The notes under the pieces are model-generated. The model saw nothing but the letters and a program-made list of their open reading frames with translations, did not search any database and was not told the origin of the DNA. A DNA stretch of 64,000 nt from Escherichia coli. GTDB lineage: Bacteria > Pseudomonadota > Gammaproteobacteria > Enterobacterales > Enterobacteriaceae. The stretch lies in NCBI RefSeq assembly GCF_044324785.1, contig NZ_CP172127.1. One strand, written 5' to 3'. Shown here piece after piece: positions 12,683-13,727 of the stretch (position 1 is its first letter; the number at the start of each line of letters is the position of its first letter). The position numbers and the translations under genes are program-made.

Positions 12683-12835
12683 TCAGCCCTCCCATATCTC
12701 GTTATCGTTGGCCACATCGCGAGCTTCTTTGCTGACGAAAGCCCACTTAATGCCTTCCTGTAAGGTGCGGAACTTCCAGCTCATGAATCCGCATGCAGTA
12801 ACGCAGTACCAACCGTTGATGATTTTCCACTGCAT
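12683..12835 (-). CDS. hypothetical small Cys/Trp-rich protein (50 aa), first gene of the leftward early operon
   Basis: ATG preceded by GAGG; MQWKIINGWYCVTACGF...; not in the ORF track (below 60 aa); hand-translated. Confidence 0.3.
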   Translation of the reverse strand: MQWKIINGWYCVTACGFMSWKFRTLQEGIKWAFVSKEARDVANDNEIWEG

Positions 12836-12854
12836 AACTTGTTACCTCGGTCTG

Positions 12855-12871
12855 TTACCGTTGAGGTAATA
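12855..12871. promoter_or_regulatory. operator-like palindrome TTACCGTTGAGGTAATA (leftward early promoter region)
   Basis: TTACC-N5-GGTAA; between the repressor gene 3' end and the leftward operon. Confidence 0.55.
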
Positions 12872-12917
12872 ATTATGCGTATATGGTTTGATGTCAATAG
12901 ATATGAGTTAAAAAAAT

Positions 12918-12932
12918 TACCCGTTAGGTAAT
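12918..12932. promoter_or_regulatory. operator-like palindrome TTACCCGTTAGGTAA
   Basis: Second site 63 bp from the first. Confidence 0.55.
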
Positions 12933-12940
12933 CGAATAGG

Positions 12941-12966
12941 CAATAAAAAAGCCGCCATAAGGCGGC
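12941..12966 (-). terminator. rho-independent terminator after the repressor gene
   Basis: GCCGCC-ATAA-GGCGGC hairpin; on the minus strand it is followed by TTTTTTATTG. Confidence 0.6.
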
Positions 12967-12988
12967 TTACTTACTGAAAAATATGATT

Positions 12989-13573
12989 TTATTGTTTGTT
13001 TTTTTCGTTCTGGTTGATGACAAATTCAATGTAACTTTCGATCTTTGCTTTCTCGGTTTCGGGTAACAAAGCGTAGCGCGAGCGGTCATAGTTGATAGTC
13101 GCAGGGTCGTGCGGGTGAATCAGTAATTCATAGCCGTGACGCCCGAATGCGGATGCAACATTCTCCAGGGTGGAAATGGAAACGCTGACCTCATTGTTTA
13201 ACAGGCGGCTGATTGTCACCTGGGCGACGCCGGATGCGCGGTGAAGTTTTCCCTGCGTTGAAAGGTCGCGGCTTTCGCTCATCCAGCGTTCCAGGTTGTG
13301 AGCCGCCAGTTGACCAATGTCGCTTGGTCCGACAGGCTGAAAACCTTCCTGAGAAAGCGAGCGATCGATATCAAGCCAGTTACGGGGTTTATTGGCGGCA
13401 GCTTCAATTTTTCGCGCAACCTGGTCGCCGATAACCTTCTTGCCAAGAGCCCAGCGGTTTACCAGATTTGCCTGAGTTCCAAGTTTTTCAGCCATCCGCG
13501 TCTGAACACCATTGAATTCACGGTCGATCAAGTCGTTGAGATTTTGCCTGCGGACGTCCTGGATACTTTTCAT
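12989..13573 (-). CDS. prophage repressor candidate (two helix-turn-helix regions, no obvious autocleavage domain)
   Basis: 194 aa; HTH-like segments QTRMAEKLGTQANLVNRW and SGVAQVTISRLLNNE; divergent from a Cro-like gene with three operator-like palindromes between them. Confidence 0.6.
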   Translation of the reverse strand: MKSIQDVRRQNLNDLIDREFNGVQTRMAEKLGTQANLVNRWALGKKVIGDQVARKIEAAANKPRNWLDIDRSLSQEGFQPVGPSDIGQLAAHNLERWMSESRDLSTQGKLHRASGVAQVTISRLLNNEVSVSISTLENVASAFGRHGYELLIHPHDPATINYDRSRYALLPETEKAKIESYIEFVINQNEKNKQ

Positions 13574-13628
13574 TTTCTGGAAAATCGCCTCATATCTGAA
13601 TCAGAAGATGATTCAATTTAAAGCAATA

Positions 13629-13643
13629 TTACCCAACAGGTAA
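13629..13643. promoter_or_regulatory. operator-like palindrome TTACCCAACAGGTAA (site 1, repressor/cro intergenic)
   Basis: Perfect 5-bp arms. Confidence 0.6.
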
Positions 13644-13645
13644 AT

Positions 13646-13660
13646 GCACCTCATGGGTAA
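13646..13660. promoter_or_regulatory. degenerate operator-like site GCACCTCATGGGTAA (site 2)
   Basis: Right arm conserved; left arm has two mismatches. Confidence 0.4.
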
Positions 13661-13677
13661 CTATCCTTGATTTTTGT

Positions 13678-13692
13678 TACCTTATAGGTGAA
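13678..13692. promoter_or_regulatory. operator-like palindrome TTACCTTATAGGTGA (site 3), overlapping the putative rightward promoter
   Basis: TTGATT (13668-13673) -N16/17- GAATAT; the site overlaps the spacer and -10. Confidence 0.5.
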
Positions 13693-13727
13693 TATTTATT
13701 ATCTGAAATAAATATCAGGCAATAGCT

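Follow-up and report, generated by a model that had tools for sequence, protein, structure and literature searches.

A close described counterpart of the locus reported here is the Rep/Ant switch of SPC32H (Kim and Ryu 2013; Kim et al. 2016; PDB 5D4Z, 5D50), a phage of the same genus, Uetakevirus, with the same gene order. The passages of PMC9638917 that summarise Kim et al. (2016) describe SPC32H Rep as a DNA-binding tetramer that is split into dimers by the Ant tetramer, and they assign oligomerisation and Ant binding to the second helix-turn-helix (HTH)-like domain of Rep, only the N-terminal HTH being named as DNA-binding. In the part of PMC7380047 that cites Kim and Ryu (2013), Ant of SPC32H is stated to be produced after LexA self-cleavage. 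The epsilon15 record (gp38; NC_004775; Kropinski et al. 2007) annotates seven palindromes as 'protein_bind: repressor'. In the phiV10 record, gp40 is annotated with 'two helix-turn-helix motifs', and both terminators are annotated too. The same sequence (phiV10 ORF40) is stated to be that of ORF21 of vB_EcoP_ZX5, whose overexpression abolished free phage and lowered the transcripts of the lysis genes (endolysin, holin) by more than 99.9%, and the Bro-N antirepressor of ZX5 was likewise examined by overexpression (PMC9782041). The Rep/Ant switch is already known, having been described and structurally solved in close relatives.

The window, that is, the whole 64-kb stretch of E. coli DNA that was analysed, contains a phiV10-like prophage (Uetakevirus) that is integrated at the end of guaA and extends from 6624 to 47387. 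The attL core lies at the guaA 3' end (6624–6640, plus strand) with the attR copy at 47371–47387; PMC9782041 reports the sequence of the core. Compared with phiV10, the encoded 194-aa Rep is 100% identical to gp40, the DNA of the immunity region is 98.0–98.7% identical, and the region discussed here is essentially without difference. The accessory genes near 40.3–41.0 kb differ from those of phiV10, and a Pfam search with the AT-rich cassette at 40293–40921 gave no match; RecT and the exonuclease each have an ORF of their own in the window. Very probably, the locus serves a phiV10/epsilon15-type prophage as its immunity (immC-type) region and operates as an SPC32H-type Rep/Ant switch. This reading is based on homology and domain architecture, on the enrichment and positional conservation of the motif and on selective constraint acting upon half-sites, together with the work of others on repression by an identical protein and, in SPC32H, on the Rep tetramer and the mechanism of Ant.

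The rep gene (12989–13573, minus strand; phiV10 gp40, SPC32H Rep family) is a 194-aa ORF divergent from the gene of a 76-aa Cro-like HTH protein (phiV10 gp41; 13728–13958, plus strand) across a gap of 154 bp (13574–13727), as a preliminary description of this DNA had it. That description had also placed three palindromes in the gap at spacings of about 17 and 32 bp; three real palindromes and the 17-bp spacing were recovered, but the second spacing between centres is 31 bp and the middle palindrome is degenerate. They comprise the rep-proximal operator TTACCCAACAGGTAA (13629–13643), a perfect palindrome; the middle operator GCACCTCATGGGTAA (13646–13660; GCACC..GGTAA), which has two mismatches and whose equivalent is a perfect site in epsilon15 and SPC32H; and TTACCTTATAGGTGA (13677–13691), which has one mismatch and is conserved in four phages. 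The last lies over the PR-like promoter of the Cro-like gene, TTGTTA-17-TATTAT (13674–13702, plus strand; 9/12 in the consensus scan and conserved in Tyrion), where it overlaps the -35 hexamer and the spacer. A leftward site that may serve as the rep promoter, TTTACC-18-TAAATT (13644–13615), is overlapped by the rep-proximal operator; the candidates for the rep promoter were all weak (8/12 matches).

The 76-aa protein matches phrog_35 ('transcriptional repressor', 8.7e-13), and its AlphaFold2 model (pLDDT 89) is a five-helix bundle whose top fold matches are all HTH domains, the DNA-binding domains of YdaS, 434 and P22 c2 being the best (TM 0.55–0.62), none with a significant E-value (E>=1.1). 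Searches of Pfam and of PDB sequences gave no match for it. The name Cro-like, which had been given to it earlier, is plausible from the phrog assignment and the predicted HTH fold, but weaker in that the E-values of the fold search are not significant.

Behind rep, the terminator followed by two palindromes at the leftward promoter that had been noted before was recovered in full. The intrinsic terminator (12949–12968, minus strand) has an 8-bp stem with six G-C pairs and then a T-run, and its equivalent is annotated as a terminator in phiV10. The PL-like promoter TTGACA-17-AATTAT (12869–12897, minus strand; 10/12 in the scan), of which the -35 hexamer is invariant in four phages, is flanked by two perfect operators, one upstream (12917–12931) and one abutting the -10 hexamer over the transcription start (12855–12869). 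Their centres are 62 bp apart, and this OL pair is also found in epsilon15, SPC32H, Tyrion and L006. The first gene of the leftward early operon (12683–12835, minus strand) encodes the 50-aa phiV10 gp39, annotated in that phage (phrog_898, 1.9e-38). The likeness to the lambda OL/OR layout drawn in the preliminary description holds for the divergent genes, the multipartite OR and the paired OL, but not for a mere OL/OR pair, as about 15 sites lie in the prophage.

The palindrome TTACC-N5-GGTAA occurs at 18 sites with at most one mismatch in the 64-kb window against 1.00 expected, a number reached in 0 of 100 shuffles; 15 of the sites are in the prophage, as are all nine perfect copies (9/9 within 6624–47387). 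A near-perfect operator-like palindrome between attL and int (6774–6788) occupies the same place in all four phages. The operator after the terminator of the Cro-like gene (14014–14028; one mismatch, conserved in Tyrion) adjoins a leftward promoter-like site at 14066–14039. After the replication genes there are two perfect sites, again 62 bp apart and conserved in three other phages (15960–15974 and 16022–16036), the first within the spacer of the promoter-like TCGATA-16-TAAAAT. Just upstream of the small terminase gene lies a pair 18 bp apart (20286–20318), which recurs at the left end of both epsilon15 and Tyrion; its first site is present in SPC32H too and is annotated as repressor-binding in epsilon15. 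Perfect operators stand upstream of the head-gene block (23431–23445) and directly upstream of the small AT-rich accessory cassette (40934–40948). A further operator abuts the promoter-like TTGTAA-17-TATATT (42020–41992) of a second antirepressor cassette (41978–41992), and one with a single mismatch lies between ant and the tail-spike gene (42358–42372), where its epsilon15 equivalent is annotated 'protein_bind repressor'. Before the lysis cassette (45234–45453) only a half-site was found, and a 1-mismatch site at 45587, inside an ORF, is probably due to chance.

We infer the promoter controlled by each operator, and paired sites may be bridged by a Rep tetramer. In lambdoid phages, operators are common to Cro and CI, and the Cro-like protein shows good conservation, with 78% identity to its SPC32H counterpart, so the dispersed palindromes could serve mainly this protein or some other phage regulator, with Rep acting only at OR and OL. 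This is improbable, as the distal consensus is the same as that of OR and OL, with many perfect copies, the distal sites were annotated as repressor sites by the epsilon15 authors, and overexpressed Rep reduced the transcripts for endolysin and for holin by more than 99.9% (PMC9782041). Such use of the sites is, moreover, compatible with the Rep/Ant switch as the main explanation.

Epsilon15, SPC32H and Tyrion share with the window the operator consensus, its positions and the spacings of 17/31, 62 and 18 bp. Two more distant relatives, with Rep 54–60% identical, keep the motif, and L006 (Rep 60% identical) also keeps the 17/31- and 62-bp spacings; the same motif, positions and spacings recur in these relatives. 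The half-sites are invariant across the family, in which Rep is only 43–60% identical. In epsilon15, the seven annotated sites have the same palindrome at homologous positions, the three rep–gp39 sites are present in the sequence and absent from the annotation, and 14 of 15 sites fall outside coding sequence in a genome that is 6.6% noncoding (p 4.6e-16). Identical Rep is encoded on at least 80 IMG/VR contigs. Among IMG/VR viral-contig loci, all with 100% identical Rep, variable columns numbered 1 of 50 in half-sites, 11 of 25 in the spacer and 46 of 232 in the other intergenic positions. The 5-bp central spacer had come under consideration as a carrier of immunity specificity when the sites of the window and Tyrion looked richer in CAAC/CCAC than those of epsilon15 and SPC32H; this was rejected, the spacer columns being the most variable and the half-sites varying almost never.

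Residues 1–190 of Rep match 5d50_A (SPC32H Rep, PDB 5D50; E 4e-42), making it a full-length homologue, and the best 12 matches of a Foldseek PDB search with the Rep model are all SPC32H Rep (5d50 or 5d4z). The two proteins are 43% identical overall, with 55% in the N-terminal and 31% in the C-terminal domain; in NCBIfam, neither Rep nor Ant nor the Cro-like protein could be assigned at the level of a family. Pfam HTH_3 matches Rep (1.2e-09) in two stretches, the better at residues 106–147, and a domain search matched residues 21–61 to a YdaS/Cro-type HTH. The AlphaFold2 model (pLDDT 79.7) has two HTH-type helical domains (4–59 and 85–151), a disordered linker (74–83) and C-terminal helices reaching residue 193. 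The N-terminal HTH domain (residues 1–60; 13394–13573, minus strand; model helices 4–19, 24–31, 35–43 and 50–59) is the putative operator-binding part and holds 15 of the 25 invariant columns of the family alignment within residues 1–54, including Q24, R26, N36, R40 and W41. The C-terminal HTH_3-like domain with its helical tail (residues 85–194; 12992–13321, minus strand) matches the SPC32H Rep 92–198 tetramer (5d4z; E 4.1e-20, TM 0.71), its invariant residues include L94, W97, F143, G144, Y148, E149, Y162, L170 and F184, and by analogy it would be responsible for tetramer formation and Ant binding.

These data bear out the two HTH-like segments described earlier, one N-terminal and one near residue 115, and the proposed role of the 194-aa protein as immunity repressor is supported by its identity to phiV10 gp40 and by the block of lytic growth upon overexpression in ZX5 (PMC9782041). 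The term two-HTH repressor is right for two HTH-type domains but not for two DNA-binding heads, the second being the oligomerisation and Ant-binding domain in the SPC32H model. A double-headed Rep, whose C-terminal HTH would read a second element near the palindromes, is very unlikely. Its C-terminal domain does give the best HTH_3 match and has a fold that is also like the DNA-binding domains of SinR and NHTF, R123 in the third helix of the domain is invariant, and a second short motif, ATRTGGTTKDWY, occurs three times against 0.49 expected, two copies standing exactly 11 bp from an operator. However, ATRTGGTTKDWY was not found in the OL regions of epsilon15 and SPC32H, the counterpart domain in SPC32H is the tetramer and Ant interface (PDB 5D4Z, 5D50, as treated in the relevant passages of PMC9638917), and the C-terminal domain has diverged to 31% identity against 55% for the N-terminal one, yet the half-sites are invariant family-wide. 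A lambda CI/LexA-type Rep inactivated by RecA-stimulated self-cleavage, with Ant as an accessory only, can practically be dismissed despite the lambda-like layout (divergent rep/cro, multipartite OR, paired OL) and the response of the switch to the SOS signal, since the Pfam search found no Peptidase_S24 in Rep at E<=1, in agreement with the lack of a recognisable autocleavage domain reported before, the model is all-helical without a beta-rich catalytic domain, the solved homologue SPC32H Rep has no peptidase domain, and the cited part of PMC7380047 attributes SPC32H-type induction to the antirepressor.

The ant gene (42024–42281, minus strand) encodes an antirepressor of 85 aa that matches 5d50_E (SPC32H Ant; E 4.1e-47) and is 88% identical to SPC32H Ant. 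Directly upstream is the LexA box CTGTATAAATATACAG (42303–42318), a perfect CTGT-N8-ACAG that is conserved in SPC32H, epsilon15 and Tyrion, and the induction through a LexA-controlled antirepressor that had been suggested earlier is in line with both. Ant is presumed by analogy to recognise Rep in this prophage, although against an identity of 88% for Ant the C-terminal domain of Rep has just 31% with its SPC32H counterpart.

In the Rep/Ant switch as proposed here, the N-terminal HTH of Rep would bind the 15-bp palindromes TTACC-N5-GGTAA, and the C-terminal HTH_3-like domain would join dimers into a tetramer without reading DNA. With operators over PR of the Cro-like gene, in the 62-bp pair flanking PL and at about ten further promoter-proximal places, Rep occupancy would silence nearly all lytic transcription. 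Upon DNA damage, Rep would stay uncleaved because it has no S24 domain; LexA cleavage would instead derepress the 85-aa Ant gene behind its canonical SOS box, and Ant, by binding the C-terminal domains of Rep, would break up the tetramer and take Rep off the DNA. That Rep forms a tetramer, resists RecA-stimulated cleavage and is disassembled by Ant is predicted from homology and from the invariant C-terminal residues. An annotation of this common E. coli prophage as SOS-inducible through Ant, rather than through repressor cleavage, would be the correct one.

A second antirepressor is encoded in the same prophage, and a P1-type C4 antisense RNA guards it. The protein (41021–41713, minus strand) is a Bro-N domain (Pfam, 1.8e-13) fused to an Ant-like C-terminal domain, residues 149–225 of which match 5d50_E (E 9.1e-14), and it also matches phrog_130, anti-repressor Ant. 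Upstream at 41762–41957 (minus strand), Rfam identifies an IsrK-like RNA (RF01394, 74.7 bits, gathering score 50) with a1/b1 targets (a1b1 model, 38.4 bits, below the gathering score of 46.7), followed by the C4 RNA (RF01695, 78.6 bits, gathering score 45). The loops of C4 show complementarity to the ribosome-binding region of the Bro-Ant gene that follows it, the loop CCUUUGUAG pairing with 41730–41722, 9 nt before the Bro-Ant ATG, and the loop AGACCAA with 41758–41752 and 41919–41913.

The discovery value of the locus is limited, as the repressor has been published and tested, crystal structures and the mechanism of the family are known, and dispersed operators are annotated in epsilon15. 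It does raise the questions of how Rep C-terminal domains that have strongly diverged are recognised by an Ant that is highly conserved, whether rep alleles are immunity groups given identical operator half-sites, and what the C4-RNA-guarded second antirepressor contributes. Ant is 85–88% identical across the phages while its presumed target, the C-terminal domain of Rep, is only 31% identical, and it is possible, though we hold it only tentatively, that one operator 'language' and one antirepressor serve very different Rep variants. Were this so, a difference in rep allele would not make two Uetakevirus prophages truly heteroimmune as far as the operators are concerned, and either would be inducible by the Ant of the other. 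In the phiV10 lineage, the Rep-repressed, C4-guarded antirepressor would then add a positive-feedback latch together with a separate immunity specificity based on RNA, like that of P1/P7 immI.

The prophage resembles SPC32H in full-length Rep homology, 88% Ant identity, the LexA box and the consensus, positions and spacings of its operators, and differs from it in a Rep of only 43% identity, a degenerate middle OR site and an OL of two sites rather than three. The Rep of epsilon15 is of the SPC32H type and likewise 43% identical to that of the prophage, and the Bro-N/Ant fusion with its C4 RNA cassette is present in the prophage and lacking in both SPC32H and epsilon15. With lambda CI, the locus shares a repressor gene divergent from a Cro-type gene, an OR of three sites over opposing promoters, paired leftward sites and a terminator-bounded repressor; in contrast to CI, Rep has no S24 autocleavage domain, its operator is 15 bp long with unequal spacings of 17 and 31 bp, cooperativity would come from a preformed tetramer, and the prophage has about ten further operators besides those of OL and OR.

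The same logic, a non-cleavable repressor inactivated by a small LexA-repressed protein, is known from 186 Tum, Gifsy GfoA/GftA and N15 AntC. The proteins are, however, unrelated, Ant being a distinct family (phrog_450), and Ant, according to the SPC32H model, acts on the oligomerisation domain without competing for the DNA-binding surface. The second module has the same order as P1/P7 immI and Gifsy-1 isrK-orf45-anrP, from an IsrK/a1b1-like element through C4 RNA to the antirepressor, and it resembles them in C4 loops complementary to the ribosome-binding region of the antirepressor. It differs in that its promoter carries a Rep operator, not a P1 C1 operator, and in that C4 targets the start of Bro-Ant directly, without an icd-like upstream gene.

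The repressor gene rep (12989-13573, minus strand; 194 aa) diverges from a 76-aa ORF (13728-13958, plus strand), the Cro-like gene, over a gap of 154 bp, as the preliminary description had it. Its product, Rep, is 100% identical to phiV10 gp40, labelled 'putative transcriptional repressor, two helix-turn-helix motifs' in the phiV10 record. That record also contains annotations matching the genes and both terminators of the region 12683-13727, whose DNA is 98.0-98.7% identical to that of phiV10, vB_EcoP_ZX5 (ZX5) and other Uetakevirus phages. In sequence, Rep is a full-length homologue of the Salmonella phage SPC32H repressor: 5d50_A, SPC32H Rep, matches residues 1-190 (E 4e-42), the isolated SPC32H C-terminal domain (5d4z) matches with an E of 4.1e-20, and the twelve best hits of the Rep model in a structure comparison are all SPC32H Rep chains.

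The two helix-turn-helix (HTH) segments first seen by eye were recovered by Pfam, with HTH_3 matching two stretches (best, residues 106-147) and a YdaS/Cro-type HTH covering 21-61, and by an AlphaFold2 model that used 37 homologues (pLDDT 79.7), in which two helical HTH-type domains (4-59 and 85-151) are separated by a disordered linker (74-83) and followed by two more helices at the C-terminal end. The proposed lack of a recognisable autocleavage domain also stands, as Pfam gave no Peptidase_S24 match in Rep. Fifteen of the 25 invariant columns of the family alignment fall within residues 1-54, including Q24, R26, N36, R40 and W41 of helices 2 and 3; identity to SPC32H Rep is 55% in the N-terminal domain and only 31% in the C-terminal HTH-like domain. 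Because the N-terminal domain is conserved, the C-terminal one diverged and the operator half-sites invariant across the family, the data fit the published assignment of DNA binding to the former and of oligomerisation and binding of the antirepressor Ant to the latter. The proposed repressor type is therefore supported, while 'two-HTH' is correct as a description of structure and probably not of function.

The operator motif TTACC-N5-GGTAA, allowing one mismatch, occurs 18 times in the window against 1.00 expected, and the prophage holds 15 of these matches, including all nine perfect copies. The three palindromes reported between rep and the Cro-like gene (OR) lie at 13629-13643 (rep-proximal, perfect), 13646-13660 (degenerate, with two mismatches, and so outside that count) and 13677-13691 (one mismatch), their centres 17 and 31 bp apart. 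The terminator said to follow rep is an intrinsic one at 12949-12968, and beyond it two perfect sites (OL, 12917-12931 and 12855-12869) flank the leftward early promoter.

The rightward promoter PR is predicted as TTGTTA-17-TATTAT (13674-13702), overlapped by the 13677 operator, and the leftward PL as TTGACA-17-AATTAT (12897-12869), where one operator would abut the -10 hexamer and cover the start site; the second is placed 62 bp farther upstream, so spaced that one tetramer could well bridge the two. For rep there is a weak candidate promoter (TTTACC-18-TAAATT, 13644-13615), relative to which the OR operators would be centred near -28, -45 and -76, a lambda-like geometry that is not taken as established. 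Past the end of the Cro-like gene there is a leftward promoter-like site (CTGACA-16-CATATT, 14039-14066, minus strand), which faces back across this gene in the direction of rep and has a Rep operator (14014-14028) just downstream; a role for it in establishment (PRE-like) transcription of rep is only an idea. A second short motif, ATRTGGTTKDWY, has three copies in the window against 0.49 expected (12881-12892, 14040-14051 and 42405-42416), two of them exactly 11 bp from the operators at 12855 and 14014, an arrangement kept in Tyrion and not in epsilon15 or SPC32H. The Cro-like protein matches phrog_35 ('transcriptional repressor', 8.7e-13) and is modelled as a five-helix bundle (pLDDT 89), closest to the YdaS, 434 and P22 c2 DNA-binding domains (TM 0.55-0.62, E-values non-significant). 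For this protein, 'Cro-like' is a reasonable but provisional label.

The predicted operators extend beyond OL and OR across the prophage. They lie after the terminator of the Cro-like gene (14014), after the replication genes (15960 and 16022, 62 bp apart), ahead of the small terminase gene (20286 and 20304) and of the head genes (23431), and around the antirepressor genes (40934, 41978 and 42358); the site at 45587, inside an ORF, is probably due to chance. A near-perfect Rep-type palindrome, TTACCTTAAAGGTAT (6774-6788), precedes int, between attL and int; its single mismatch is identical in all four phages compared, and in the epsilon15 record an integrase arm-type site is annotated that overlaps the counterpart there.

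Epsilon15, Tyrion and SPC32H have 15, 15 and 18 sites, respectively, with the same consensus, homologous positions and common spacings (OR 17 and 30-31 bp; OL 62 bp). These three phages also share the 62-bp pair after the replication genes and the 18-bp pair at the terminase gene, except that a single terminase site is present in SPC32H. Two more distant relatives (Rep 54% and 60% identical) keep the consensus; L006 (60%) keeps the 17/31 and 62-bp spacings too, whereas the Serratia OL pair is 75 bp apart. In epsilon15, 14 of the 15 sites lie outside coding sequence, though noncoding DNA makes up only 6.6% of the genome (p 4.6e-16), and seven are marked 'protein_bind: repressor' in its record. 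Among IMG/VR contigs encoding an identical Rep, 1 of 50 half-site columns varies, compared with 11 of 25 in the spacer and 46 of 232 in other intergenic positions (half-site against other intergenic, p 0.0012); the half-sites are thus constrained and the spacer free.

The prophage (about 40.7 kb, within the E. coli chromosome) carries the 17-bp core ATTGAGTGGGAATGATT at both ends (6624-6640 and 47371-47387), the same attachment core at the guaA 3' end as reported for phiV10, epsilon15 and ZX5 (PMC9782041). It contains a tRNA gene (23035-23108, minus strand, Rfam 73.3 bits), where SPC32H has an annotated tRNA-Arg, and an Rfam match to sRNA-Xcc1 downstream of int (8806-8895, minus strand, 64.8 bits against a gathering score of 53). 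In the DnaT-like replication gene (14325-15140), TGGGATCATTCAACATCCCG is directly repeated in tandem (14675-14718), giving a repeated PKNGMLND peptide. RecT (293 aa) and a YqaJ-type exonuclease (273 aa) are each encoded by an ORF of their own, the two overlapping (10685-12384, minus strand), whereas the phiV10 record has one fused 'recET' gene.

The presumed LexA-controlled antirepressor is present: ant (42024-42281, minus strand) encodes a protein that shares 88% identity with the Ant of SPC32H (5d50_E, E 4.1e-47), and 22 bp upstream lies a perfect AT-rich LexA box, CTGTATAAATATACAG (42303-42318), kept in SPC32H, epsilon15 and Tyrion. According to the account of Kim et al. 2016 in PMC9638917, SPC32H Rep occurs as a dimer and as a tetramer; the tetramer is the DNA-binding form, with the two DNA-binding domains on one palindrome belonging to different dimers, and it is broken on binding of an Ant tetramer to two Rep dimers. 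LexA self-cleavage in these phages is described as allowing the antirepressor to be made and to inactivate the repressor (PMC7380047, citing Kim and Ryu 2013). ZX5 ORF21, stated to have the same sequence as phiV10 ORF40, eliminated free phage on overexpression, with drops of 99.99% in endolysin and 99.97% in holin transcripts, while overexpression of the ZX5 Bro-N antirepressor gave less lysogeny (PMC9782041). Identity to SPC32H is 88% for Ant and 78% for the Cro-like protein against only 31% for the Rep C-terminal domain, the supposed Ant target; within an otherwise conserved switch, it is therefore Rep that diverges fastest.

A second immunity module (41762-41957, minus strand) sits between ant and the tail genes, with an IsrK-like RNA (41868-41944, RF01394, 74.7 bits) and a C4 antisense RNA (41762-41849, RF01695, 78.6 bits). 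After the latter, the gene at 41021-41713 (minus strand) encodes a 230-aa protein in which Bro-N is combined with a C-terminal domain that shares homology with SPC32H Ant, and the C4 loops are complementary to its ribosome-binding region and to an upstream box. A leftward promoter-like site of this cassette (42020-41992) abuts the Rep operator at 41978-41992, on which a 41-bp perfect palindrome just after the ant stop codon (41961-42001, GGAGTGCTTATATTTACC GCAAA GGTAAATATAAGCACTCC) is centred; it may be both operator and RNA hairpin. Nearby, a perfect Rep operator (40934-40948) lies directly upstream of an AT-rich accessory cassette (40293-40948, minus strand; a 55-aa ORF at 40754-40921 and a larger one ending at 40293), in which Pfam and NCBIfam searches gave no matches; the related phage TL-2011b has an annotated YafO-family toxin in the part of its genome matching 40250-42480.

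The observation is thus confirmed and its interpretation supported, for a system that is already known. The C4/Bro-N cassette is an arrangement of the P1/P7 immI type and has a relative in Gifsy-1 isrK-orf45-anrP (PMC4825925), but here control would lie with Rep.
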